From NCBI GenBank assembly GCA_903936565.1, contig CAIZVZ010000001.1:29401-93400 (forward strand): DNA of 64,000 bases. Direction: 5' to 3'. This DNA is from an uncultured bacterium. Its GTDB lineage: Bacteria; Patescibacteriota; Minisyncoccia; Phycocordibacterales; CAIZLB01. The stretch's first letter is position 1; every line of letters begins with the position of its first letter. The notes under the pieces are model-generated. The model was not told the DNA's origin and ran no database searches. It worked only from the letters and a program-made list of their open reading frames with translations. Made by a program: the position numbers and the translations under genes. Shown one piece after another: positions 5,283 to 37,364 of the stretch.

Positions 5283-5318
5283 ACATAACAAAACACCACC
5301 CCTTTCGGAGCGGTGTTT
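5283..5318 (-). terminator. rho-independent terminator (imperfect hairpin aacaccacccc/ggagcggtgtt followed by T-tract on minus strand)
   Basis: Hairpin plus T-run read on minus strand, downstream of CDS 5399..6037. Confidence 0.45.
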
Positions 5319-5398
5319 TGTTTAGATAGTTTTTTTATTCTGTGCAATGAATATTACATATCACTAATTGCAACTTCGTGGCCACTTATCTCCACTTG

Positions 5399-6037
5399 TT
5401 ACTTAATATTATCAGCTAGTATTTTGTTAGTATTGGCAGACATAGCCTTAGCTACTTCTGACTTTTTCCAACAAGGAGCTGATGATATCCATGGGGCTGT
5501 ACCCTCTTCCTCGTAAAGCAACTTGGCATATGCCATGTTACCCTCTGCGGAATAGATATCCATTCCCAACTTCTTAGCACGCTTTGCGTGGTAATATTCA
5601 TTAACTTGAGCTATACCAATGTCTTGGCTATTAGCTATTCCTCTAAGGGCAGTACCGTCTGCGTTAAATTGTCTAAATCTTGACTCACATTTAACGATCT
5701 CTGCCATTATAGGCGTATCCTTGAAATATAATCTAACCTTACTTTCTATTTCTGCGTTTCTATCAAGTTTAACTGTCTTTGCTTCTGGAGCTGCAACAGC
5801 ATCATTAATTGACTCTGCCTCTGCTACCTTAACAAAACTGATTTGTCTTGAAGATGTTGCGGTTATTGATGATTGTGTACTGGTTTCAGTTATCACAGGA
5901 TTGTCTGTTCCTACCATACCGGAAACAATCATCGCCATACCTATTGTAAGTTGTAAAATAAAGAATCTATTATGTTTGTAATGCGCATGTCTATGTCTGA
6001 GTTGGCTATACGCTTGCACGGAACTTAAAAAGCACAT
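5399..6037 (-). CDS. membrane-anchored lytic transglycosylase-like (lysozyme-like fold) protein
   Basis: N-terminal TM helix; C-terminal CESRFRQFNADG...DIGIAQVNEYYH resembles the family-1 lytic transglycosylase ES...GLMQ catalytic region. Confidence 0.5.
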   Translation of the reverse strand: MCFLSSVQAYSQLRHRHAHYKHNRFFILQLTIGMAMIVSGMVGTDNPVITETSTQSSITATSSRQISFVKVAEAESINDAVAAPEAKTVKLDRNAEIESKVRLYFKDTPIMAEIVKCESRFRQFNADGTALRGIANSQDIGIAQVNEYYHAKRAKKLGMDIYSAEGNMAYAKLLYEEEGTAPWISSAPCWKKSEVAKAMSANTNKILADNIK

Positions 6038-6283
6038 CCTTATGTGCTATGCCAATATACTAGCATGGCCAGCCAAATAAGTCAACCATTTTAGGGGTAC
6101 TTTTACCCCCTAAAAACACTAAAGTAGGGCTATACATAAGGATATAATCAATACAATATAGTTGACTATGCGTCAATCTATGTGTTTTAGTTTTAAGCCT
6201 TAAACATAGCCGTACAATCTTAAAAATGCCAATTTGGTCATTTTGGTATTATCCACATCCTCCACCCTAAAATACTTGACTTC

Positions 6284-6520
6284 TTATTTTGTCTTCTTAG
6301 CGGGCCTTTTCTTACTTTGCATCAAGATATCGTTCTGAAGGGTTAACTCCTTTTTAAAGGTCTCTCCTGCCCTATCAAGGGTCTTTGTATCGCAATTAAG
6401 GACAATACTAGCCGGCGTTCTATAGAGCCGTAGTAGATAAACCAATAAGCCGAAATTAGCCACCCCCAAGAGGATTGCTACCATGAAAATCCAAAAATGT
6501 ATTGATATTTTACTCATCAT
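6284..6520 (-). CDS. small membrane protein, hypothetical
   Basis: 78 aa with one TM helix (FWIFMVAILLGVANFGLLVYLL), basic C-terminus. Confidence 0.35.
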   Translation of the reverse strand: MMSKISIHFWIFMVAILLGVANFGLLVYLLRLYRTPASIVLNCDTKTLDRAGETFKKELTLQNDILMQSKKRPAKKTK

Positions 6521-6680
6521 AGGTTATACTGATGACCACTTCTCATATGGCACCAGCTGGGATATCATCTCATGATCGCCCCAAAGAAGTCATAAAGATT
6601 TTATAAAGATTTCCAAATTTTTAATAGAGTCTCAAAAGGAATGTTTTAAAATCCCAAATAACACAAAATAAGATAATAAT

Positions 6681-6953
6681 ATGGCAACAAAAAAAGCTGG
6701 AGGTTCAGCTAAAAACCTAACAGATTCAAATCCACAATACCTAGGTATAAAACTATACGCAGGTGAGCGTGCTCAAACTGGATCAATAATCGTAAGACAA
6801 AGAGGAACAAAGATCATGGCTGGTAAGAACGTAGGAGTTGGTAAAGACCACACTCTATACGCAACAGCCCCTGGTGTTGTAGAGTACTCAACAAAGAGAA
6901 AGGTAGACTTCGATAACAAGGTAAGCAAGAAGAAGGTTGTTAATGTTAAATAG
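6681..6953 (+). CDS. rpmA: 50S ribosomal protein L27
   Basis: [12 protein letters not shown]...[11 protein letters not shown]...GKDHTLYA is the canonical L27 sequence. Confidence 0.92.
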
Positions 6954-6986
6954 GTAGAACCCTTAAACTTTACAGTTAATAAAATG

Positions 6987-7013
6987 CCCGCCGTGATTGG
7001 CGGGTGTTTTGTT
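6987..7013 (+). terminator. rho-independent terminator of rpmA (cccgcc-gtgatt-ggcggg then TGTTTTGTT)
   Basis: 6-bp GC stem, 6-nt loop, T-tract immediately after; 34 nt downstream of the rpmA stop. Confidence 0.6.
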
Positions 7014-7028
7014 GGAATAATATTTCAG

Positions 7029-7061
7029 ATAAAAAAATAGACGCCGGCAGATTTGCCGGCG
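7029..7061 (-). terminator. rho-independent terminator for minus-strand gene 7089..8249 (cgccggc-agattt-gccggcg plus T-tract on minus)
   Basis: Perfect 7-bp GC stem; complement of aaaaaaata supplies the U-tract on minus strand. Confidence 0.55.
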
Positions 7062-7088
7062 CCCGTAGGTGCCACACTATTGAACTCG

Positions 7089-8249
7089 TCAGCCGTTACC
7101 GTTACTGCCATTGTAGTTGTACGGCGGATAGTACGGATCTGCTGGTTCCACGACATCCCCGATATTCCAAGCGGGGATTACGTAGTAGATGCCAGGCTCC
7201 GTGATGGGTAGGTTGAAACTCATAACGTTTTGGGTCGTATCAAGGCTTGGGGTGTAGGACACCCATTGCGAAGTCCCCGATTTCCGAACCAAAGCCGATG
7301 TAAACCATTTTCCTTCCGTGGTCCAAAAAGACACCTTGGAAGTAAGTGGGTGAGTCACCTTCAGCTCGGCAGTGATGTTGTCACCGTACCCACCTTTGAC
7401 GGTTGGAACGGCCACAAAGACATCACAGTCTTGCAGAGTAACCGTGCCCATAATACTCGCTTGGAACCTGGCGGCGTAGGCTGCGGAGCGCACTGGAACT
7501 CCACCTTTCCCAACATTCCAATACACCCAGTTGCCGACATAGGTACCATTGGTGTTAGGAGAAACGTGATTTGGTTGATTGCTAGTGTAAACCGCAAGAA
7601 TCCGATTCCCGCCCGTAAGCTGTTTTGGGTAGTAAACTTTCCCATTGCTGACCTGCAGGTTGTGGGTGTTCTGAGTACGACCGTTATCATCCAGTTCGTC
7701 CACAAACGCCGATTCGGCGCCGGGGATTGAAATTGGAATCAAGTCGGCCATTTTCAGGGCAAGACTCTTGTAGTCCTCAGGCATCACGTGGTTACCGTGC
7801 GAGTCCGTCACCAACATGAATTGTTTGGACCCACTAAATAGCAAGTCCCAATTGTCGTTGTAAACGGCTGCCCACGTGAAGAGTGGGTCGTCGTAGTTGA
7901 CCACGTCCACAGACAAACTAATGCTGTGGATGGTGTTGATAATCCCCGCGGCTGAGGCTTCCATCACCAAGGTCTGCGCGTTTGCCTTGTTACCGGTCGG
8001 CAGAGACGCGCTGATACTGATCGAGACACCGTACGCCTGTTCCTCGGCATAGGTCTGCAACATGTGCTTCGACATCAGCATTGGAAGCGCTGACTGGTTT
8101 GCCGGAGTGACCATTTGCTGAACCTGAGTGATCGGGGTTGGCGCCGATGGGACGGTTGGAGTTGATGTTGGTTCCCCCTGCCCTAGCGCGGTGAGCGCAA
8201 GGAGGGCCGATGTGATTAGCGCGCTGAGCGCATTGATTTTCGTTTTCAT
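7089..8249 (-). CDS. secreted hypothetical protein (signal peptide), GC-rich island gene 1
   Basis: N-terminal MKTKINALSALITSALLALTALG signal; GC and GC3 far above genome background; TGA stop. Confidence 0.6.
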   Translation of the reverse strand: MKTKINALSALITSALLALTALGQGEPTSTPTVPSAPTPITQVQQMVTPANQSALPMLMSKHMLQTYAEEQAYGVSISISASLPTGNKANAQTLVMEASAAGIINTIHSISLSVDVVNYDDPLFTWAAVYNDNWDLLFSGSKQFMLVTDSHGNHVMPEDYKSLALKMADLIPISIPGAESAFVDELDDNGRTQNTHNLQVSNGKVYYPKQLTGGNRILAVYTSNQPNHVSPNTNGTYVGNWVYWNVGKGGVPVRSAAYAARFQASIMGTVTLQDCDVFVAVPTVKGGYGDNITAELKVTHPLTSKVSFWTTEGKWFTSALVRKSGTSQWVSYTPSLDTTQNVMSFNLPITEPGIYYVIPAWNIGDVVEPADPYYPPYNYNGSNGNG

Positions 8250-8311
8250 GCGATTTCTGTATTTCCTGTATTTTCTGTGTTTGCTTTTTCTGTACCTATT
8301 CGTTGTTCTTG

Positions 8312-8572
8312 CTATTCTTCCAATGTTGGGCTGATGCGCAGCCCGTCAAAGTGAAGTACTTTTTTCCCATCAGCCGCGGACTGCGGATGTGGTGTTGCGA
8401 CCAACTCCTTTGCGGGAGTGGCCGTTGATGTTTGTTCACCCTGGGAAGGTTTGAATTTTCCACAGACGATAGCAATGGCGCCCAAAAGGCACACCACCGC
8501 GACAATAATGCTCGGTTTGTTCATTTTCATATTCAGTTGGCAAAGATTCACTGCCAAAAAGAACCGTATCAT
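8312..8572 (-). CDS. small secreted/lipoprotein-like hypothetical (likely start at internal MKMNKPSIIVAVV, ~8530)
   Basis: Signal-like segment IIVAVVCLLGAIAIVCG; inside the GC-rich island. Confidence 0.4.
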   Translation of the reverse strand: MIRFFLAVNLCQLNMKMNKPSIIVAVVCLLGAIAIVCGKFKPSQGEQTSTATPAKELVATPHPQSAADGKKVLHFDGLRISPTLEE

Positions 8573-8709
8573 GATTTGATATATATGTCAATAGTGCTCA
8601 TTGAAGATACATCTAAAATACTAAGTATTATAAGGATAATATTTAACAAAAAATCACCCCGACTCTCGCGAGCCGGGGCGTGGGGATGTAACCCAAACAT
8701 AATGAATGG

Positions 8710-9969
8710 TCAACCGCCCGGTTTATTCAGACGGTAAAATTGCTGAGCTGGTACGGAACCAGGTTGGCCGATAATCACGTACGCCATGTCACCCAGCGTT
8801 GAGGTGTAGAGGTATCCGTTGGCTTCCGCCACCAAAATCCTCTTCCCATCACCAGACATGGTCGCTGAGACAAAACGATACTGGTCGAAAGCACCAGAAC
8901 TGAGACACCCCGTTTTCATGGAATCCTCGGATGTGAAAATCCGACTTCTCCAGTCACCCAGGGCAACAATCTTGGTACAAGTCATATCGCTTGAGATGGA
9001 AGCCATTCCTTGTGCACCAGACGCTGAGGTTTGACTCCAGTTTGTTCCGCTGTCCATCGACATCCAGATCTCACCCCAGTGGGTAATCGAGATCAGTTTA
9101 CTTCCATCCGACGAGGATACTGCCGAAAGCCAGACATAGCTATTGCTGTAGTCCGTACCGTTAACAACTCCGTCGAGTGGATTTGGGATTCGAATCCATG
9201 TAGCACCACCGTCAGTTGATCGATACCTAGAACCACCGTTCACGAGCGCAAGCAACTTGAGCCCAGTTGAATCGGACGCGACTGCCGTCCAATTACGCAT
9301 ACCTGCGGCGGTACATGCTATCCACGACACACCTGAGTCCGTCGAGGTATAAATGTAGCCGTTTTGAACCGCTCCCGCCAGCCTCGTACCATCTGAGGAT
9401 GATGCGATTGCCACCCAGTTACGAGTAGTGTCAGATGTCCTTTGCATCCAAGTGAGACCAGCGTCAGTAGAGGTGTAAATATATCCGTACTTCACACCTG
9501 CCGCCAACTTGTTGCCACCTGCGCTTGTCGTAATACAACTCCATGCTCTTACTCCAGAAGCGACCGATTCCATCCACGTAGCACCGCTATCAGCGGATGT
9601 GCGGATGTTGGCATTAGTCGCGATAGCAACCAGCCTGGAGCCATCAAATGAAGAAGCTGTACCGACCCATGGTCGCTTAGCATCTGTCAGATGTGGAGTC
9701 AGAGCGGGGCCAGAAGCCGTACTAACATGATGCCAACCAGCCAAGTCAGCCGACTTTTCAACATCATAGTAACCGAGGGGTTTGGAAACCCATCTCAGCA
9801 CTGCGGGTGTCGTATCTGTTGCTGGCGAATAGGCCACCCCTTGCTGACCGATAACTTGCCCATGAGACAGTGAGCTTGCGCCCATCAACCCAAGTAGCGT
9901 CATCAAAGTCGCCAAGGCAAACCTTGCGAATCTCGTTGCAGGTCTTCCCTGCTTTGTATTTGTTTTCAT
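8710..9969 (-). CDS. secreted BNR/Asp-box repeat beta-propeller protein (sialidase/Ycf48-like fold)
   Basis: Signal peptide; at least five Asp-box motifs SxDxGxTW (YTSTDAGLTW, YTSTDSGVSW, RSTDGGATW, TSADSGATW, SMDSGTNW); GC-rich; TGA stop. Confidence 0.7.
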   Translation of the reverse strand: MKTNTKQGRPATRFARFALATLMTLLGLMGASSLSHGQVIGQQGVAYSPATDTTPAVLRWVSKPLGYYDVEKSADLAGWHHVSTASGPALTPHLTDAKRPWVGTASSFDGSRLVAIATNANIRTSADSGATWMESVASGVRAWSCITTSAGGNKLAAGVKYGYIYTSTDAGLTWMQRTSDTTRNWVAIASSSDGTRLAGAVQNGYIYTSTDSGVSWIACTAAGMRNWTAVASDSTGLKLLALVNGGSRYRSTDGGATWIRIPNPLDGVVNGTDYSNSYVWLSAVSSSDGSKLISITHWGEIWMSMDSGTNWSQTSASGAQGMASISSDMTCTKIVALGDWRSRIFTSEDSMKTGCLSSGAFDQYRFVSATMSGDGKRILVAEANGYLYTSTLGDMAYVIIGQPGSVPAQQFYRLNKPGG

Positions 9970-10048
9970 CGTTGTTCTTTTTCTTTCTGTGGTTTGATCA
10001 ATTTCAGTTTGATTTTTATTTTACACCTAAGCCCGTTAGACCTAGCGC

Positions 10049-11374
10049 TTGATTTCAGAGTGGACAGAAAGTCCGAAAATAAGAATACATCAAATTTGCA
10101 AAATGTCACCCCTAACCTTGACCCATCACCTTAACCTATGTTATAAAAAATATATGACTAATTTATCTAATGTGTCCGCCAGTGTCGGTCTTATCCCCCA
10201 CCAAATAATATCAACCTTCCTTTCAGTATCAATGAAGGATGTTTTTGATATGGTAATAGTGGCAATTTGTATATATCTTGTCCTAATCTTCATAAAGCAA
10301 ACAAAATCAACATTTATACTAATCGCCACCGTTGTTCTATTTAGCATAAACTTCATTTCCCAGGAATTTGACCTCGCACTAACTAGAAGAATTTTTGAAC
10401 CCCTACTCACCTTCTTTATCGCAATCTTCATTATTGTTTTTCAACCTGAGATTAGAAAGTTCTTCAAATGGATTAGTGCTGGAAGAAAGACAACTTTTGC
10501 AAAAGCCCTTTCACTTCCTGAAGAAAACGCTGAGACAATTGTAAGGTCAGTTTTTGAGATGGCAAAGAAACGCGTTGGCGCAATTATCGTTCTACCTGGT
10601 CAATACCCCCTTGATGACTTAATTGAAGGAGGTTTTCCTCTGGATGGTAAGATATCAATGCCCTTAATATTAAGTATTTTTGATTCATCTTCTCCTGGGC
10701 ACGACGGCGCTGTTTTAATCGAAGGTTCTAGAATAAAAATGTTTGGACTACACCTACCACTTGCTCGTGAGTTTTCAGAATACAGTAGAGTTGGAACAAG
10801 ACATCGTGCAACTGCCGGCATCACAGAAAAAACAGACGCTCTTGCAATCGCAGTATCTGAAGAGCGTGGTGAAGTTTCAATTTCTCAAGGCGGTAAATTA
10901 ACAAAAGTTAACACACCAGAGGAGCTGGCAACTGTGATTCAAAAATTTATGGATACAGAAAGTGATGCATCTGACAGCACCAAGAGTCTTAGCCACTATT
11001 TTCTAGTTAAAAATAGTTACACAAAAATTGCCGCGATATTACTCTCAATAATTTTCTGGTTCTTCCTCATTCACGCAGCTGGAATTGTTAAAAGCACCTA
11101 CACAATTCCTGTTGAATTCAAATATCTAAAGGATGACAAAACAATCAGCGCTGATTCAAAAAGTACAATAAAGGTTACTGTAACTGGAAACAACAAGGAT
11201 ATCGCAGGATTAAAACCAGAGGATATTCATGCTGTGATTGATGCAAGTAATTTTAAGATTGGTGAAAATGATTTAGAAATAAATCAAAGTAATATCAAGC
11301 TACCTTCGTATATTGAGCTGGATTCTTTTACACCAAAGACCTTAGAGATTAGCACAAAAGCAATCGTGAATTAA
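10049..11374 (+). CDS. cdaA: diadenylate cyclase CdaA fused to a C-terminal YbbR/CdaR-like domain (true start possibly downstream, e.g. ~10154 or ~10232)
   Basis: Three N-terminal TM helices, DAC domain motifs DGAVLIEG...LGTRHRATAGITEKTDALAIAVSEERGEVS, then a further TM and a YbbR-like beta-rich domain (TIKVTVTGNNKDIAGLKPEDIHAVIDAS...). Confidence 0.75.
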   Translation: MISEWTESPKIRIHQICKMSPLTLTHHLNLCYKKYMTNLSNVSASVGLIPHQIISTFLSVSMKDVFDMVIVAICIYLVLIFIKQTKSTFILIATVVLFSINFISQEFDLALTRRIFEPLLTFFIAIFIIVFQPEIRKFFKWISAGRKTTFAKALSLPEENAETIVRSVFEMAKKRVGAIIVLPGQYPLDDLIEGGFPLDGKISMPLILSIFDSSSPGHDGAVLIEGSRIKMFGLHLPLAREFSEYSRVGTRHRATAGITEKTDALAIAVSEERGEVSISQGGKLTKVNTPEELATVIQKFMDTESDASDSTKSLSHYFLVKNSYTKIAAILLSIIFWFFLIHAAGIVKSTYTIPVEFKYLKDDKTISADSKSTIKVTVTGNNKDIAGLKPEDIHAVIDASNFKIGENDLEINQSNIKLPSYIELDSFTPKTLEISTKAIVN

Positions 11375-28134: not shown

Positions 28135-31100
28135 TTATTTTTCAATCACCTTCGGTACCTTGGAGCATTTCCCCTCCGCTAAAGCACTTAGGTTAGCTGT
28201 TATCGGATTACCATCTTCTCCGACTCCACTTGTATACTTAAGATCACAGTACAATGTATGCTTACCAACTCCTAATCTAATTAGCGCGGATGGTGTTGGA
28301 GTAACATTTACGGTATTAATACCCTTATCTACGTAACAGGAGGCATCGTGGACATTGTTATATACCACTCCGTTACCATCTATCATTGTTGTACTTGCAT
28401 ATCCGTAGAAATTACACTTCTCATCAGTACTTGATGCCCAACTTGGATTTGAGTAGAATCTAAGGCCTTTAATTGGTTTATTAGATGTCCCTACATATGG
28501 ATCATTCGTACAAGGACTTTTATTGACAAAGTTCGGTGACAACAAAATATTACTAGGAGCAGAAGGTATCACGTCTGTACCACTCATCATATATGCATAA
28601 GCAACATAATTTGATAACGACTGTGGATTGAAACCATTGCCGAGGGTAAATTGAGTGATACTAGCTGGAGTCTCTCCCAATAAGGTACTTGATTGATACA
28701 CATTATATCCATCTGCATTAGTTACACTATTCCATGTTATTGTTGCTCGATTAGACCCATTAACATCTGTACAATATTCACCACTTATCAATGGTGCCGC
28801 TACAGTCGTAGTTACAGGGTTAGTTGCATTAATATTGAAGATAGTCCAACTAGATATTTTTCCACTATTTTGATCCTGAGCCGCAACCTTCATAGGTGTT
28901 GTTGTTGCAGTAGCCCAAATATGATCTGCTGGAACTCTTACTCCATAAGCATAATAATCACTAACATAATCCACGGCGCTATCACTATTCCAATCGAATA
29001 GATATCTGACCCTATCATCAACAGTTTGTGCAAAAACTTTTTTGATTGCAAACATAATCGAAGCAAACAATGACTCCTTCTTGTTTTTCCCCATCGATCC
29101 TCCAGATCCCCCAGATGCATTATCTGACCATGCTTCATAGGTATTATTTTCTCCAACAGTAACATCATGTGGCCCTGCTACATTTGGCGCAGAAGGTGTA
29201 AGTTCTCCTATTGGTTGAATAACGTTGAAACTAATAGGATAAACAGACTCTCTAAATCTTAACTGATAAGGCGAATAGTAATCAACCAACGTATTTGGAC
29301 CAAAGTTTAGATCTTCATGATAGGAATTTAGAAAATTCTGATAAGTTGAATAACATCTATTTCTAGTGTAATTAAAATAAGGATATGGTACAGGACAACC
29401 GATTACAGTACCACTTGAATTTACCATCTTGTTAACATTTATACATCCAACCTCACCAGGCACACAAAATCCAACTCCATTATCATTTGTAAGATTATTT
29501 GATACATTTGCATTATTAACTGTCACTTGACGCTTATCATGTAGCGGTACAGCATTTGTCTTACAGATTCCATCTGACCCCTTCCATCCATAATAATAGT
29601 ATCCAAATGTTGGTGCATAATACATGTAAGCGGTTTTTGAACCAGGTATGGTTGGGGTACATGCAAATCCATCTGCAATGTCACATTCCCAATTTTCAGA
29701 GTCATTGTCCGGAACTAAGGGTGCACCCCACTCTGGATATGTGCTTGGGTCGATAATATAAGGATTAAGGCCACCAACACTAAATGAGAGGCTTTTGTTT
29801 GGAGGATCAACTGAAAGTGGAACAAAAATATCTATATTTTGAGTAATGCCAGTTACTGGATTTAGGTATGGCTTTGTGCCCACCTTGTTTCCTGGAGTAC
29901 AAATTTGGTTTGATGCTGGATATTCAGCATCAGCGATCCAACTACCATAAGGGGTGTCTTGTGTATACCCAATTCCTGACCAAACAATATTATTATTTGT
30001 TGTAGAATTTGTCTTGTCAAAATTAAAGTGTACTTTTGTGTCAATTATTAAGTTGCTTCCATTAGGAATTGCGATACCCAAATCATCTCTAACTGAAGAG
30101 TCATAACTTATAGACGATGTAGTAGGCTGAAGCGCAGGGGCCCAGTCACCGTCGGTCAAACTACCTGTGTCACTTGCCCAATAATATAAATATGGAGCAT
30201 CATTAACAATGGTTGAATACCAATAATTCCAAACATAGTCCCACACCCACCAGAATCCGGGAGGAATTGGCAAACCCGGCGGTTTAGGAACCTTATAATA
30301 CTCGTAAGACTTTACCAGCGTACTTGTATTGTGATTCCAACAAACACTTTTAACAGTAATATCTTTCCAACCTTTAGTGTTTGCAGGTGAATTGAATCTT
30401 ATATAAGTATTTGTGTGCTCAGTAATACGCGCCAACGCTCCTCCAATATGAAGACTTTTTACATTTTTAAAATTGTCACCATGAATCATTGAATCTACAC
30501 CTCCAGTAGTCGGACTATGAGGTGGCTGAGGAGGTCGAGAAAGTGTTTTTACTTTTGGATCGAGACATATGAATTTAAAAGTCCCCTTCTCTACGCATCG
30601 AGCAAGAATTGGTATAGGGTGATCTCTGAAAATTATTGGTTGAGGAGCCTCCCCTGATATTCTATCAAAGGTAAACATAATCAAGCTATCTGATTGGCTT
30701 ATAATAGTTCCAGGGTAAACGCCAACTCTAATCGCCCTTACTTGTGTCAATTTCGTACCTCCAGCAAAAGCGGTAACTTTTCTCGGATCACAGTTCATTT
30801 GATCTGGGCAATTCTCAGCTTCCATCGGTGTCATACTTTGAACATCAAAACACGAGTCTGAAGAACCACTATTTGAACCATTCGGGTCCGGGTATGTACC
30901 ACTGTTAGAATCTCCAGTACCAGAATCGGAGCCAGCATTCGGGTCATATCCCGTACCAGAATCGGAGCCGGTACCAGAATCGGAGCCAGCATTCGGGTCA
31001 TATCCCGTACCAGAATCGTAGCCGGTACCAGAATCGTACGACTCCTGAGCATGCGCGTTCAAATGGATCGAAAACGCACTGATTAGCATTCCAAAAATAA

Positions 31101-32523
31101 TCAAAATTCTAATTTTATTTTTCATCAGCTTTAGAAGAAAACTTTTAATTAAACGGTGCTTGAATGCAATAAAAATTATTATAAACAAGAGTATTAATAT
31201 ACCCAATATCTTTACTGTCATCATAAACCATTTATTTGAAACCAAATCTCCAAACATTGATGACTTACACTTATTTGGATCTACTGAATTACAATCGTAA
31301 GGTATATAAACTTCATCAACTAATTTTTGACCACTAAATAATGTTGCGTGTAATTTGAAATTCTTATAAGTTTTACTTGGTGTAAAATCTTGAGCAATAG
31401 CCCCCATATCTCCTTTTATCGAGCCATTATATTCATATGCCACGATTGTGTTGTTGTCCTCATCTAAAAGCTCCATCTTCAATTTATTGTCTTCGATTGG
31501 GGTATTACTATTTGATGCATTATGAAAACATGAGAATATTGTGTTATTTTGACCTGATATCAGTGGATAAGATGTAATTGAAGGAAAATTAATTCTGGGC
31601 ATATTTACTCCATCCCTTGCAAACCTAGCGGTCATTACAGACTTCGTATCTTTATAATTAAGCACTGCTTCAACATAGTAAACAGAGAAATTATTATCAC
31701 TAACAACTACTGGCAACTCAACAGTTTTGCCAGCCTCCATTATTGCAACATGAGTAACTGAACTGATTTTATTTTCAGGTGCTTGTGTGTCCCATTTATA
31801 AATATTAAACTCAACTTTTACAGCCTTTCTTTCTTTTGTACTATTGGAAATCGCAAAAGTTGTTGTCACAGGCTCCGTTGCACTGACAATTGGAGAAAAG
31901 GCGGCAGCTGTATATGGCTTATTATTAACCTTAACCCCATCTCTTTTAAACATAACCCCCGTAGCCTGCTGACCCGTGACAATAAAGCTAGACGAACCCC
32001 CGATGACATCATCAGTAAAACTTAGTCCTGCTAAATTAAATTTATTGCTAGTTACAAAATATGTAGCTATTCTATAGGTTCCACCAATTGCGTATGCTGG
32101 CAAATTCCATTTAAATGAAATAGGCAACTTTTCTCCAGCCATCAAGTTAATCTTATCTTGCACGACAAAGGTATCTAATACATCTGGCCCATTTCCATCA
32201 TTAATAGTTCTTGCTCTAAAAATCTTAGCATATAGCTTACCATCAACTATTGGATAATTATTTTCATTCAACAAATATCCAGAAAAATCCATAGTCGTTC
32301 CAGAGACATATTGTCCCATTCGTGGAATAGTACTTATTTTTACACTGTTAAATTTATAGTAGTCCGCGCATTCAGCATTAGTTGTGGTGGCAAAATATCT
32401 CTCACCCAAGTCTAGAGCAGAATCAGCCGATAGAACTTTACCACTGCCCAATATTGAAAAAGTGATTACAATTACGGACAAAATGATTGAAGAAAACAAC
32501 AATCTTTTAAAAGAAATTTTCAT
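28135..32523 (-). CDS. giant (1462 aa) surface protein: signal peptide, ~430-aa N-terminal ectodomain, internal TM hairpin whose second helix looks like a signal peptide (MKNKIRILIIFGMLISAFSIHLNAHA), Ser/Gly/Asp-rich linker, very large C-terminal ectodomain with FN3-like module
   Basis: Continuous ORF, hydrophobicity pattern, ITWNSVTNADGYNVYQSS FN3-like motif, C-terminal SCY...VGKHTLYC motif shared with 34025..37207. Confidence 0.7.
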   Translation of the reverse strand: MKISFKRLLFSSIILSVIVITFSILGSGKVLSADSALDLGERYFATTTNAECADYYKFNSVKISTIPRMGQYVSGTTMDFSGYLLNENNYPIVDGKLYAKIFRARTINDGNGPDVLDTFVVQDKINLMAGEKLPISFKWNLPAYAIGGTYRIATYFVTSNKFNLAGLSFTDDVIGGSSSFIVTGQQATGVMFKRDGVKVNNKPYTAAAFSPIVSATEPVTTTFAISNSTKERKAVKVEFNIYKWDTQAPENKISSVTHVAIMEAGKTVELPVVVSDNNFSVYYVEAVLNYKDTKSVMTARFARDGVNMPRINFPSITSYPLISGQNNTIFSCFHNASNSNTPIEDNKLKMELLDEDNNTIVAYEYNGSIKGDMGAIAQDFTPSKTYKNFKLHATLFSGQKLVDEVYIPYDCNSVDPNKCKSSMFGDLVSNKWFMMTVKILGILILLFIIIFIAFKHRLIKSFLLKLMKNKIRILIIFGMLISAFSIHLNAHAQESYDSGTGYDSGTGYDPNAGSDSGTGSDSGTGYDPNAGSDSGTGDSNSGTYPDPNGSNSGSSDSCFDVQSMTPMEAENCPDQMNCDPRKVTAFAGGTKLTQVRAIRVGVYPGTIISQSDSLIMFTFDRISGEAPQPIIFRDHPIPILARCVEKGTFKFICLDPKVKTLSRPPQPPHSPTTGGVDSMIHGDNFKNVKSLHIGGALARITEHTNTYIRFNSPANTKGWKDITVKSVCWNHNTSTLVKSYEYYKVPKPPGLPIPPGFWWVWDYVWNYWYSTIVNDAPYLYYWASDTGSLTDGDWAPALQPTTSSISYDSSVRDDLGIAIPNGSNLIIDTKVHFNFDKTNSTTNNNIVWSGIGYTQDTPYGSWIADAEYPASNQICTPGNKVGTKPYLNPVTGITQNIDIFVPLSVDPPNKSLSFSVGGLNPYIIDPSTYPEWGAPLVPDNDSENWECDIADGFACTPTIPGSKTAYMYYAPTFGYYYYGWKGSDGICKTNAVPLHDKRQVTVNNANVSNNLTNDNGVGFCVPGEVGCINVNKMVNSSGTVIGCPVPYPYFNYTRNRCYSTYQNFLNSYHEDLNFGPNTLVDYYSPYQLRFRESVYPISFNVIQPIGELTPSAPNVAGPHDVTVGENNTYEAWSDNASGGSGGSMGKNKKESLFASIMFAIKKVFAQTVDDRVRYLFDWNSDSAVDYVSDYYAYGVRVPADHIWATATTTPMKVAAQDQNSGKISSWTIFNINATNPVTTTVAAPLISGEYCTDVNGSNRATITWNSVTNADGYNVYQSSTLLGETPASITQFTLGNGFNPQSLSNYVAYAYMMSGTDVIPSAPSNILLSPNFVNKSPCTNDPYVGTSNKPIKGLRFYSNPSWASSTDEKCNFYGYASTTMIDGNGVVYNNVHDASCYVDKGINTVNVTPTPSALIRLGVGKHTLYCDLKYTSGVGEDGNPITANLSALAEGKCSKVPKVIEK
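30917..31040. repeat. 55-bp coding tandem repeat (2.2 copies) encoding SGTGYDPNAGSDSGTG linker
   Basis: taccagaatcggagccagcattcgggtcatatcccg occurs at 30917 and again at 30972. Confidence 0.5.
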
Positions 32524-32616
32524 ACATTAATTATAATGCACTTTGCAATTAACGTCTACAATAAAAAGTGCATAAGTGTTGAGAACTTTTTTGAAATGAC
32601 CATTGAAATAAATTGC

Positions 32617-34024: not shown

Positions 34025-37000
34025 TTAATCTTCCGTAAATTCAGAACTTGAGAAACATTCTCTTTTTTTATCGTACTCAACATCTATTGAATCATCATAA
34101 ATCCCCTTACACCACAAACTGTGTCTGCCGACAGAAACTTCAAGGTTTCCTGCTATAGATATCTTATTATCAGAACTTGCAACCTGTTCTGTTAGAGATA
34201 TTTGTCCGGTTTTATTTTTTAAGTAGCACGACTTAACGTTTTCTGCTTCCAAATACAATTTACACTTACCACCAATATTCGTATTATTTGGATTAAATTT
34301 AAAGGTATTAATCAAAGGTCCGCCACAAACCTCCGTTGTATCAACCCAAGACCAATTTGAAGTTGTAGTATCACATTTATTTGGAGTTTGTACACGACCT
34401 GTTATACGATTACATTTCTGTCCGGGCTTAACACCACAGGATGTTTGAACGGAAACATGACAGTTTTCAGTAATCGTAGAGCTAGATGTTTTGATTGAGA
34501 CACTTAAATTGTAATTTCCTATCGTATCATACTTTCTAGTATAAGTTGGGTCAGTCGCTCCTAAAATTGGACTGTTATTTTCCATCCATTGATAACTTAA
34601 AACCCCGCTACTAGCTGCGCTTGATTTAATTACTTCCAAAATTACATTATCACCCTGAGTCACGGGGTTAGGTTTGGCTATACACGCAAAATCATTATCA
34701 CCAATTACAGTCGGATCACAAGATGGGTCTGATAATAGATCACAACCTAGTGGCTTAGCTGTTGTAAAGGAAGACTTTCCAACAGTCCAAACCTCTCCAT
34801 TATAGACACTAACACGAAGATTATAATATGTATTTGGACTTAATCCTGATACCGTCCTATTTTTAGATACAGTACTTCTAACTGCATCAGCGCTTCCAGT
34901 AGACGCTAGATTCTTTAACATGCTTATAGCAGAATAAATCCTAGCTATAAATGTAGATCTGTTGACAGATGCCACAACATCCTCCTCTATAACCATAGTT
35001 CCATCTAAATTAAATGGATTACTTGGAAATGTATCATATTTTGATACTTCAATTTTATATTTTTTCTGAGGCTTAGTATCCGTATAATCCCATTTTACTC
35101 TTGCTGAATATTCTGCTAACTCATCAGCACTAGCAACAAGTGCTGGGTCACCCTCTTTGCTAACATCAGAAGGTCCGACTGTAAACTCAAAGTAATTAAC
35201 CATAGGACTTGAAACAGGCTTTCCAGGTCCATAACAGCGATACATATTATTTTTAGAACGTATAATACCTGAGTAGAATATTGAAGTTGGATTCTCGTCC
35301 AAGACTAATGTAGGGCTACCCCTTTTCCCAAACCCGCTTTCACCTTCATAAGCAGTAGTACATTTAAAAAATGAACCGTAAGTAACATTTAACGGCGGTC
35401 CAGCTTGATTACCTTTGATACCTCCAAAACGTGTAACATTTGAATGATAGAAAGCATTTGAATTAGTTCTCAGTATGTATTTACCAGGTTCCATAGGGGC
35501 AAACACCTTAGTTGATGTCCTATTTGCAGATGTAGGTGTAAAGCTTGCAAATTTATAATAACTATTTTGCCTATGATCACCAGATCCCGCGGCGGAATTA
35601 AAAGCAGAGACGGAGCTGACAAGCGTTCCATCTTCTTTGTATATTCCATAATCTACATGTGTCCAAAGAGTGGAGTTGTGACAAACCTGAGCCATACCTT
35701 GTGAATAAATGTCATTTCCCATATTTTCACCTGGCAAAAATACACTCTTAGCAAGAGATGTACTCAAATTAAATTGACCGGGATTTGTACATTGACCACC
35801 AGAACAGATTGGCACCTTTGCAAAATCAGGAGTAATTCTAGCTGCATGAACTTCTGAAGTGGAGAAACCTAGCACGAGCATAAATATCGCAATCGGTATA
35901 AGAACAGATTTCTTTCTTCTAAGATAAATAGCGCCAATGGCAAATACCACAATCAGTCCCAATATTAAATATTGTATAAAACCCATTCCCATTTTTGGTG
36001 CTGTATCAGTCAAGACCGTATTATACTTGGCAAGCTCAGCATTACCCTTTGTAATCACAACCTCCACACTTACAGAATCAGCATCAAAAGATACTGGTAA
36101 TTCAAAATTTACAATACTAGATAATGTATTTAGATCAATATCTTTTTGACTTGATGCAATAACTTCATTCTTCTCATTAGTTAGAGTCATCTTAATTGTA
36201 CTAGTTCCAATATCCTCAGAAAGACCTGTTTCTATGTTTACTGGAGAGCCTGTGTATTCAACATTAACAACTGCCATCTCTCCTTGTTTAAACTTTGATT
36301 GATTAATATTGACATTAGGAATGGTGGCCATTGCACCTTCTACAATCCACCTACTTGATATAAATGGTGCTCTTTCTTTTCCATTTGAATCAAGGAAATA
36401 CAGTTGCCCATCATATACTCCAGCCTTAGAAAAATCCTTAAGATCAAGTATTAACTCCTTTTTTTCACCCGCTTTGATTGTAAACATATCATATTCCTTA
36501 TTACCAACCTCTGGCCTGGATGGCGCCATATCATATACTTTTAATTTAGGAATTAAGTCTAGGTTGGCTGAAGAATTATTTTGTAATTCAAAAATTATCT
36601 TTGGGGCTGTATTTTTAGCAACAGTAGGACCTTGTTGTAATGTATATTCGGTATCCATAACTTTAAGAAAAGCATAATTAACTACAGCAGAATCCAAGAA
36701 AGCTCCTAATTTTATATTTCTTCCTGTAGATCCTAATACTTCACCTGTTTTCAGAATTGCAATGAATTCTATTCTTGCTGTATCAATATTAGCGCTAGCA
36801 GAATCAGGCATTTTAAATTTTATCTTAATCTCCTTACTTGAATTTTTAGGCAGAAAGACTTCTGCTATATTTTTTTGATATCCATATTCCTGAGAAGGAC
36901 TACCATCTTTACTGGTCATTAAAAATGCAGAAATTGATATATCTGAATAATCCACAGATGTCTTGTTACTCATTGGTATAACAATGTTTACAATATCACC

Positions 37001-37207
37001 CTGATTATAGACTCGGTCCTTAAAGACGGGTTCTGACATTCTAATTCCAAAAAGATCTTTATCGTTTAATATTTTCCCCTTAACTTCCCTAATATCTATT
37101 CTCTCTGGTGATCCACCTGTAGGAATTGTTAAATTTTCTGCAAAGGCAGGGGTTGTTGAAATTAAAAAGGACAGCGACAAAACATAGAATAATATTTTTT
37201 TCATCAT
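34025..37207 (-). CDS. giant (1060 aa) surface protein with the same architecture as 28135..32523: signal peptide, ~400-aa N-terminal ectodomain, internal TM hairpin (…IYLRRKKSVLIPIAIFMLVLGFSTSEVHAA), large C-terminal ectodomain with FN3-like module
   Basis: Hydrophobicity pattern; C-terminal SCY...VGRHSLWC motif paralogous to the other giant protein. Confidence 0.7.
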   Translation of the reverse strand: MMKKILFYVLSLSFLISTTPAFAENLTIPTGGSPERIDIREVKGKILNDKDLFGIRMSEPVFKDRVYNQGDIVNIVIPMSNKTSVDYSDISISAFLMTSKDGSPSQEYGYQKNIAEVFLPKNSSKEIKIKFKMPDSASANIDTARIEFIAILKTGEVLGSTGRNIKLGAFLDSAVVNYAFLKVMDTEYTLQQGPTVAKNTAPKIIFELQNNSSANLDLIPKLKVYDMAPSRPEVGNKEYDMFTIKAGEKKELILDLKDFSKAGVYDGQLYFLDSNGKERAPFISSRWIVEGAMATIPNVNINQSKFKQGEMAVVNVEYTGSPVNIETGLSEDIGTSTIKMTLTNEKNEVIASSQKDIDLNTLSSIVNFELPVSFDADSVSVEVVITKGNAELAKYNTVLTDTAPKMGMGFIQYLILGLIVVFAIGAIYLRRKKSVLIPIAIFMLVLGFSTSEVHAARITPDFAKVPICSGGQCTNPGQFNLSTSLAKSVFLPGENMGNDIYSQGMAQVCHNSTLWTHVDYGIYKEDGTLVSSVSAFNSAAGSGDHRQNSYYKFASFTPTSANRTSTKVFAPMEPGKYILRTNSNAFYHSNVTRFGGIKGNQAGPPLNVTYGSFFKCTTAYEGESGFGKRGSPTLVLDENPTSIFYSGIIRSKNNMYRCYGPGKPVSSPMVNYFEFTVGPSDVSKEGDPALVASADELAEYSARVKWDYTDTKPQKKYKIEVSKYDTFPSNPFNLDGTMVIEEDVVASVNRSTFIARIYSAISMLKNLASTGSADAVRSTVSKNRTVSGLSPNTYYNLRVSVYNGEVWTVGKSSFTTAKPLGCDLLSDPSCDPTVIGDNDFACIAKPNPVTQGDNVILEVIKSSAASSGVLSYQWMENNSPILGATDPTYTRKYDTIGNYNLSVSIKTSSSTITENCHVSVQTSCGVKPGQKCNRITGRVQTPNKCDTTTSNWSWVDTTEVCGGPLINTFKFNPNNTNIGGKCKLYLEAENVKSCYLKNKTGQISLTEQVASSDNKISIAGNLEVSVGRHSLWCKGIYDDSIDVEYDKKRECFSSSEFTED

Positions 37208-37364
37208 TCAATTATATACCACAACGCATAAGTTTAATAGGATGTAATATCCACATAATTATTTTTATCATTCCACTCTATTTTTAACCCCAAGCAATGG
37301 ACACACATTTACAAAGTAATCATTTAATTGGATTGATTTTTAATTAATTGCTATAATTTATCAC

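Follow-up and report, generated by a model that had tools for sequence, protein, structure and literature searches.

Within a 64,000-nucleotide stretch of a patescibacterial contig (CAIZVZ010000001.1 of assembly GCA_903936565.1, positions 29,401 to 93,400; hereafter the window), one open reading frame (ORF) of 1462 amino acids plus stop (28135..32523, minus strand) carries a segment resembling a signal peptide deep inside its coding sequence. We conclude, with a probability of roughly 70%, that this ORF is a natural in-frame fusion of two linked genes that kept the signal peptide of the downstream gene and that it yields two surface proteins once signal peptidase I has cut the chain. A preliminary description of this DNA had offered two alternatives, a fusion of genes for secreted proteins or a precursor cut by signal peptidase. 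Because the two halves are adjacent genes in about half of the related loci and one ORF with the signal peptide retained in 39 of 84, these alternatives amount to the same thing, and our analysis supports both at once, with cleavage as a prediction. The product of the upstream gene, which we call N, has a signal peptide in front of three beta-sandwich ectodomains and closes with one membrane anchor and a short basic tail at its C-terminus. The product of gene C also opens with a signal peptide, which is followed by a conserved all-beta module and then a variable series of Ig-like domains. On genomic evidence, the N/C pair is linked throughout the Parcubacteria/Paceibacteria part of Patescibacteria. 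Family hidden Markov models (HMMs) for the N-module and the C-module both match the 1462-aa ORF, which holds the equivalents of both genes in a single reading frame.

The two halves meet at a pair of hydrophobic segments separated by a basic loop. The first segment, TM1 (aa 432-454, WFMMTVKILGILILLFIIIFIAF; 31162..31230, minus strand, as are all features of this ORF), forms a 25-residue helix (431-455) in an AlphaFold2 (AF2) model and is predicted to be the stop-transfer anchor of the N-module. The loop that follows (aa 455-472, KHRLIKSFLLKLMKNKIR; 31108..31161), predicted from its charge to be cytoplasmic, contains an in-frame Met at residue 467 (31123..31125), and its end forms the n-region of the internal signal peptide. 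The h-region (aa 473-486, ILIIFGMLISAFSI) and the c-region (aa 487-492, HLNAHA) together occupy 31048..31107. The whole junction reads WFMMTVKILGILILLFIIIFIAF-KHRLIKSFLLKLMKNKIR-ILIIFGMLISAFSI-HLNAHA/QESYDSG (the slash, here and below, marks a predicted cut), with QESYDSGTGYDSG following the c-region. The predicted signal peptidase I site lies between A492 and Q493, corresponding to bases 31048 and 31047. The preliminary description had singled out 31047..31212, which encodes aa 438-493, as a textbook n-h-c signal peptide with an AHA cleavage site right after a transmembrane (TM) helix. This is indeed what we find: residues 467-492 have the n-h-c organization and end in AHA/Q, and the TM helix at 432-454 and the basic loop precede them. 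The in-frame Met that had been placed about 440 residues into the ORF also exists, at residue 467 instead.

The main evidence that this segment came from a separate gene is the organization of related loci. The loci analyzed were 80 fetched from species-representative genomes, the window itself, and look-up loci L001-L006; we classified 84 of them with local N- and C-module HMMs. By N-module content, all 80 fetched loci are from Patescibacteria, some records standing under other automated labels. A fused ORF is present in 39 of the 84, and in every one of these (39/39) the C-module is in the same frame. Gene N is followed by gene C in about 25 loci, and in about 12 the order is reversed, with gene N beginning 1-70 nt after gene C; a few loci at contig ends were left unassigned. 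The closest database homologues, 80 out of 80, are single ORFs that keep the signal peptide and the AxA site. A stop codon at the junction, which the preliminary description had proposed to look for in orthologues, is present in the split loci and absent from the 39 fused loci of the 84.

The details of the split loci show how the two arrangements correspond. In N-then-C loci, the start of gene C mostly lies between -8 and +9 nt from the stop of gene N, and in split relatives gene N ends 29-66 residues past the N-module, just beyond TM1 and its basic tail. The basic loop of the fused proteins corresponds here to the C-terminal tail of N plus the n-region of C. The split C genes begin with an ordinary signal peptide, ending for example in VEG/KSVSW, AEA/KDAIW, AKA/ESIVW, or SHA/ESVMW. 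This signal peptide and the internal segment of fused proteins have the same length, share the same [AV]E[AG]/KSVxW end, and stand at equal distance from the C-module; the median distance from the last charged residue to position -1 is 21.5 in fused and 20 in split proteins. The correspondence can be followed in a pair of sisters: at the split locus L066, gene N ends in ...KEQKRSNRFK and a stop codon, followed after 4 nt by MRYLNHFKLLLIVLVGGAFLMPEVVEG/KSVSW, and the fused protein P0043 reads ...KRNNRFKVLFLALMLGGLFFGGGQVVEG/KSVSW at the same place (longer extract, KHTKRNNRFKVLFLALMLGGLFFGGGQVVEG/KSVSW). Similarly, the coding sequence of P0088 (locus L001) ends in a stop codon, 2 nt before a C-module gene that begins MIHTTQFSLCTFLLTFFILFAGLFVLPTQTNA/ASENW. 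These comparisons show that the internal segment (aa 467-492) is the predicted Sec signal peptide of gene C itself, retained in frame. At another locus (L004), the gene downstream of a short N-only protein, P0115, is unrelated and a C-module ORF lies upstream, so not every short N-only protein precedes a C gene.

The two arrangements have been exchanged repeatedly. Parsimony on a neighbor-joining tree of the N-modules requires at least 14 changes between fused and split, an approximate count given that the tree is rough. Since the gene order can be inverted, with C before N, the two parts can function without being covalently joined, as expected of mature proteins that are separate.

We also asked how closely the internal segment resembles a signal peptide across the family. 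A search of 5.8 billion proteins gave 80 homologues of 874-1830 aa, with Paceibacterota, Moranbacteria, Kaiserbacteria, and Taylorbacteria among the source names, and 82 proteins entered the family statistics. All 80 homologues are built alike, the signal peptide being followed by 400-480 residues of N-module, then TM1, a loop rich in K/R, and another hydrophobic segment shorter than the first; both hydrophobic segments are present in 82 of 82 family proteins. An [AV]xA motif followed by a residue other than Pro occurs in the 19-residue window past the second hydrophobic core in 62 of 82 proteins, compared to 13.5 +/- 3.3 (maximum 27) for random windows from the same proteins in 2000 trials. 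The same count is 8 in the window past TM1 and 59 at the proteins' own N-terminal signal peptides. With the best -3/-1 site of each protein as the anchor of an alignment, 74 of 82 proteins have A or V at -3 and 70 of 82 have A at -1; positions -5 to -7 often hold G, P, or S, and Pro never occurs at +1. Such an alignment is self-selecting and favors these residues by construction, which is why the random-window control was run. Identity around the internal segment is low, these signal features aside. The loop carries on average 4.7 K/R vs 0.3 D/E. The apolar stretch of the internal segment has a median of 16 residues, compared to 20 for TM1 (p = 2.6e-10); in this respect it cannot be told apart from the proteins' N-terminal signal peptides, whose median is 15 (p = 0.13).

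The segment in the window has the expected parts of a Sec type I signal peptide. Its n-region, MKNKIR, contributes the positive charge with three K/R; its h-region of 14 residues falls within the range of about 7-15 and is shorter than a membrane-spanning helix; its polar c-region, HLNAHA/Q, carries Ala at both -3 and -1 and is not followed by Pro. In the AF2 model the h-region is a helix of only 14 residues (471-484), with a disordered c-region next to it. The departure from the type is one of position, as the segment begins at residue 467 and is N-terminal only in the split orthologues. Other sorting signals were considered and rejected: a lipoprotein (signal peptidase II) signal, since SIHLNAHA/QESY has no Cys and hence no L-x-x-C lipobox; a Tat signal, since the n-region KLMKNKIR lacks RR; and a sortase-anchored (LPxTG) surface protein, since there is no LPxTG and no C-terminal hydrophobic segment.

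The predicted cleavage site appears to be maintained by selection. In the window's subclade the -3/-1 sites are AHA, AKA, AHA, AYA, AHA, VYA, AHA, VSA, ALA, VQA, and AEA, with AEA being the site of the closest relative, L007. These residues are kept even though the downstream linker is unconserved and of low complexity, so membership of the C-module fold cannot by itself account for the conserved site, which seems still to be under selection in fused lineages. Conservation of -3/-1 and of segment length across fused proteins with 30-40% identity in the N-module, together with a pair that functions in either gene order, likewise points to selection, which argues that signal peptidase I probably still cuts the internal site in these lineages.

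From these observations we propose the following course of events. The N-terminal signal peptide would start export of the N-module, TM1 would halt the transfer, and the basic loop would remain in the cytoplasm. The internal signal peptide would then re-engage the translocon in an N-in, C-out orientation, the 970-residue C part would be exported, and signal peptidase I would cut behind AHA492. One product would be the N-module, held in the membrane on a hairpin of TM1, loop, and signal peptide; the other would be a free C-terminal protein starting with QESYDSG, presumably kept on the surface through binding to its partner. These products would equal those of the split genomes, made in a 1:1 ratio and in the same place.

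Several points weigh against cleavage into two proteins. About a quarter of the family lacks a strict [AV]xA in the automated window, most of these proteins still having a small residue at -1, and the enrichment statistics come from related sequences that are not independent samples. The tight hairpin might hinder access of the signal peptidase. A LepB motif scan of the 64-kb window revealed no signal peptidase gene, so that its presence in the genome is assumed. Binding between N and C, and their biological role, are proposed from genomic linkage and generic beta-sandwich folds only. Finally, R472 to A492 is a stretch of 20 residues that could span the membrane as an uncleaved signal-anchor.

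This last point leads to the strongest of the alternatives, which we regard as possible and rather unlikely: the same fusion took place, the second segment is now a permanent signal-anchor in an uncleaved helical hairpin, and the product is one 1462-aa chain with two tethered ectodomains. The 20 residues are just enough to cross the membrane, the strict [AV]xA is missing in about 20 of 82 members, and cleavage is deduced rather than observed. The fusion may even be selected for tethering the C part, which has no other anchor. Against this, deep divergence has left the small -3 and -1 residues and the polar, helix-breaking c-region in place, also in the window's subclade with its unconserved downstream sequence. 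The apolar core is as short as that of a signal peptide and significantly shorter than TM1, and AF2 gives the second segment a helix of only 14 residues. The split and the C-then-N arrangements, moreover, indicate that the mature proteins work unlinked.

A second alternative strikes us as quite improbable: Met467 would be a functional start codon from which the C part is translated as a secreted protein of its own, in addition to the fused chain or instead of it, and the locus would act as a split one does. MKNKIR does resemble the start of a signal peptide, the Met is kept in a few close relatives (P0001, P0005, P0009), and the starts of split relatives lie within a few nt of the upstream stop. 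The closest relative, L007, has Thr at this position with an N-module that is 80% identical, however, and others have Ser, Arg, or Ile; the Met is also absent from the 1060-aa neighbor described below, from that neighbor's family, and from most members of the main family. These replacements bear out the earlier suggestion that the Met is dispensable, a ground on which the preliminary description had inclined to a deliberate single-chain design. A ribosome-binding site at the internal Met had been proposed as a check, and neither a Shine-Dalgarno (SD) sequence nor a TATAAT-like box lies ahead of Met467. Since this genome hardly uses SD, the test for a leaderless start was made on the -10 box, with a negative result; initiation signals are poorly defined here, about half of the genes in the window showing neither of the two. 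In addition, the upstream product would have no stop codon to end it.

The weakest alternative, a stop codon lost by assembly or sequencing error or a chance resemblance to a signal peptide, might be entertained because split pairs are common in related genomes and is effectively refuted, since the ORF is fused in 39 of 84 loci and in 80 of 80 nearest database homologues, independent European Nucleotide Archive assemblies (9 contigs) also have a 1462-aa gene call at this locus, between uvrC and ddl, and the [AV]xA enrichment is far beyond the range of random windows. The preliminary description would have given way if orthologues had been uniformly split and reads had pointed to an assembly error; instead the fused form recurs, in relatives and in these assemblies alike. 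The exact 1462-aa sequence is absent from a collection of 15 billion proteins, and the locus was recovered through its 1060-aa neighbor, which is 100% identical to a database protein on the 9 contigs where a 1462-aa gene is called. This suggests that strain-level variation is concentrated in the fused gene.

The remaining parts of the ORF are as follows. A promoter-like site, TAGACG-17-TATAAT (32530..32558, minus strand, 10/12 positions matching), has a -10 box whose end is 6 nt upstream of the ATG at 32523; this spacing implies that the mRNA of the entire 1462-aa ORF is leaderless or nearly so. More generally, the genome in the window is almost without SD sequences, and a TATAAT-like -10 box lies 3-10 nt before the start in 20 of 37 long ORFs vs 8% of all ATG triplets (examples are 32530..32535, 37213..37222, and one upstream of 37365); together, the frequent start-adjacent boxes and the scarcity of SD imply mostly leaderless mRNAs. 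The N-terminal signal peptide (aa 1-33, MKISFKRLLFSSIILSVIVITFSILGSGKVLSA/DS, with the end VLSA/DS; 32425..32523) is assigned from the sequence and appears in AF2 as a helix at 6-26 followed by disorder. The N-module (aa 48-410; 31294..32382) consists of three tandem beta-sandwich domains, resembling fibronectin type III (FnIII) and macroglobulin (MG) domains, at about 48-185, 190-305, and 309-410, and a stalk containing Cys joins the ectodomain of about 380 residues to TM1.

The predicted C-terminal product starts with a low-complexity linker rich in Ser, Gly, and Asp (aa 493-556; 30856..31047), of which the first 63 residues have pLDDT <50 and are disordered in AF2; the closest relatives carry similar SG linkers. 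The YDPNAGSDSGTGSDSGTG linker immediately behind the predicted cut is encoded by a 54-nt unit repeated in tandem (30917..31036; 2.2 copies at 98% identity, 18-nt sub-period). This repeat has the look of a recent expansion and may differ in copy number between strains. An IPT/TIG domain follows (aa 666-725; 30349..30528; Pfam PF01833, 24.9 bits vs a gathering cut-off of 20.9). The linker and TIG region form an insertion specific to the window's subclade between the signal peptide and the C-module; in most relatives the C-module stands directly behind the signal peptide. The conserved C-module spans aa 775-1275 (28699..30201), with local HMM matches at aa 775-1139 and 1170-1275 (E 6.6e-43). It contains the motifs W.G.GY..DTPYG.W and PL.V.PP and a PKD-like part, and is all-beta in AF2. 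Ig-like beta-sandwich domains in the AF2 model make up the C-terminus (aa 1276-1462; 28138..28698). No LPxTG was found anywhere in the 1462-aa ORF, and there is no C-terminal anchor, the end ...KCSKVPKVIEK being without a hydrophobic segment.

The N-module is the most conserved part of the family, with invariant residues that include C52, Y56, N86, N88, Y90, P91, W139, P142, G166, L167, and F169 and an NLxGLSFTDD motif. A profile of it matched 1305 clusters among 1.84 billion representative proteins, 899 of them at E <1e-30, and about 23 of the 150 best clusters are proteins of 427-543 aa that end with TM1 and a short basic tail. The AF2 model of residues 1-502 (mean pLDDT 88) contains the three tandem beta-sandwich domains, the TM1 helix, and a short loop helix. 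Foldseek matched the N-module to the FnIII domains of RbmA and the MG domains of alpha-2-macroglobulin at E ~1e-10, with TM-scores of 0.25-0.29 on the query and 11-14% identity, a likeness between models that we take to go no further than the general fold; neither a thioester nor a bait region was recognized in the N-module. For the C-module, the family consensus is EAKSVxW...DIxWxGTG...DSPYGxW...YxPLxVxPP...TDPDGD..YxxDW, and the AF2 model of residues 493-1462 (pLDDT 80) consists of the disordered Ser/Gly linker and then a string of Ig/IPT/FN3-like domains. Fold searches with both models returned generic beta-sandwich matches only, and no enzyme or known adhesin family. In Pfam-A only TIG (aa 666-725) passes the curated cut-off, NCBIfam gave nothing, and the N-module and the first ~270 residues of the C-module are unmatched.

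A second large ORF of 1060 aa lies next to the fused gene (34025..37207, minus strand) and encodes a signal peptide, an ectodomain of about 400 residues, TM1, RKKS, and another segment resembling a signal peptide. Its hairpin (35843..35989, minus strand) consists of TM1 at aa 407-430, the RKKS loop, and a segment at aa 435-455 that ends ...IYLRRKKSVLIPIAIFMLVLGFSTSEVHA/A, giving a VHA/A site. The preliminary description had called this ORF a paralogue with the equivalent segment and no Met there. The segment and the missing Met stand; the relationship is more distant than supposed, as BLASTP found no significant similarity between the 1462-aa and the 1060-aa ORF, hhalign of its N part against the family profile gave a probability of 74% (E 2.8e-5), and the C-module HMM did not match it. 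We therefore downgraded it from a paralogue to a remote relative with the same architecture. It has only four relatives in the 5.8 billion proteins, all with a VxA site (one is identical, and the other three have VLA/M, VVA/M, and VNA/R), and it supports the generality of the design within this genome. The ends of the two large ORFs of the window (28138..28260 and 34028..34150) look related, with VGKHTLYC... vs VGRHSLWC...CFSSSEFTED at the stop. The C proteins of C-then-N loci (e.g., L024 5413..6843 and L038 5326..6825) have a conserved end of their own, ...C...G......A.V.ILP.W.EF before the stop. Together these ends hint at a common terminal domain without an anchor motif.

Genomes often hold several copies of the family, frequently in tandem, as at L064 (2662..5949, 6776..8851), L071 (3579..7772, 7905..11324), and L039 (1601..5152, 5303..6670), and pairs of loci come from one genome (L016/L020, L043/L054, L014/L022, L025/L029). 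Fused and split copies can coexist, as in one metagenome-assembled genome with L043 fused and L054 split. No conserved third partner was found across 81 loci, and no signal peptidase, sortase, pilin, or secretion genes. At the split locus L005 (1108..4986, 6685..10221; also L006), the N gene has on either side a gene in which the PKD-like end of the C-module is combined with Hint/intein-like domains (PF05203, PF01079). The downstream gene of L005 encodes TPR repeats and then a Hint domain between poly-Gly runs (GGGGGGGCFISDTDV...VVHNKDGGGGGGG), which suggests an autoprocessing domain within a surface protein.

To our knowledge, natural bacterial proteins with a cleavable signal peptide in mid-chain are very few, the textbook case being a single cytochrome precursor. 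This is FbcH of Bradyrhizobium japonicum, a cytochrome b / cytochrome c1 precursor that is reportedly cut at an internal signal peptide. The two systems are alike in that the upstream moiety ends in a TM helix with a cytoplasmic C-terminus, the downstream moiety keeps an in-frame Sec signal peptide, and one gene yields two membrane or periplasmic proteins in a 1:1 ratio from what are separate, adjacent genes in other bacteria. The ORF in the window has the same succession of an upstream TM helix, a basic segment, and a downstream signal peptide, with a topology predicted by the positive-inside rule, and its moieties are encoded in relatives as separate genes, each with a signal peptide (about 25 N-then-C and about 12 C-then-N loci). 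The proteins themselves differ, having no relation in sequence or fold: here both moieties are beta-sandwich ectodomains of unassigned function. There are also at least 14 interconversions and more than 1300 clusters in the present family, and cleavage, reported for FbcH, is a prediction here.

Other known systems share parts of this logic. SecD and SecF occur as adjacent genes or, as SecDF, in one ORF depending on the lineage. Such a fused/split pair is a 'Rosetta stone' sign of functional partnership, as it would be for N and C; in contrast, these fusions are not known to be cut again, and SecDF has no retained cleavable signal peptide. The SlpA precursor of Clostridioides difficile is cut by Cwp84 into two subunits that associate with each other, so that one precursor gives two cell-surface proteins that stay together. 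There a dedicated cysteine protease makes the cut outside the membrane, an internal signal peptide is not its target, and the proteins are not homologous to ours. RbmA, a Vibrio biofilm scaffold with tandem FnIII domains, and bacterial alpha-2-macroglobulin with its MG domains resemble the N-module as its best structural matches, in having tandem beta-sandwich domains; the low TM-scores and the 11-14% identity limit the likeness to the fold. Viral envelope polyproteins such as flavivirus C-prM-E-NS1 and bunyavirus Gn-Gc contain internal signal peptides that are cut by host signal peptidase. In these, too, stop-transfer anchors alternate with internal signal peptides, and successive ectodomains are exported and separated by signal peptidase, although this happens in the machinery of the eukaryotic ER and from viral genomes, whereas the ORF described here has two modules only and lies on a bacterial chromosome. 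Viral polyproteins with internal signal peptides are mentioned in passing in PMC6784171. Our literature searches on the N/C family and on bacterial internal signal peptides found nothing directly relevant. The logic of the arrangement is a known one, that of FbcH and the viral polyproteins, and the proteins belong to no described family.

The family comprises more than 1300 clusters, is restricted to Patescibacteria as far as our searches show, and has no Pfam or NCBIfam model. Its repeated switching between fused and split forms, with the signal peptide kept, offers a ready natural experiment for studying what Sec and signal peptidase do with internal signals. Annotations of such ORFs should list two mature products, and the internal segment will be taken for a second TM helix by topology predictors. 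As a pair of surface proteins, N and C are abundant, multi-copy, and fast-evolving, and they occur in organisms whose surface and attachment to hosts are almost unstudied. It is tempting to speculate, and we offer this as a tentative idea with the odds against it, that the N/C pair is the main, as yet undescribed surface apparatus of Parcubacteria, serving as a surface layer or in host attachment. N would act as a dock in the membrane and C as a rapidly diversifying, exchangeable outer part, and repeated fusion with the internal signal peptide kept would be a means peculiar to this lineage of ensuring 1:1 co-delivery or of switching between tethered and released forms through the efficiency of signal peptidase. 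The mechanism itself is conventional; the weight of the finding lies in the scale of the family, the natural series of fused and split forms, the consequences for annotation, and a possible major surface system of Parcubacteria.

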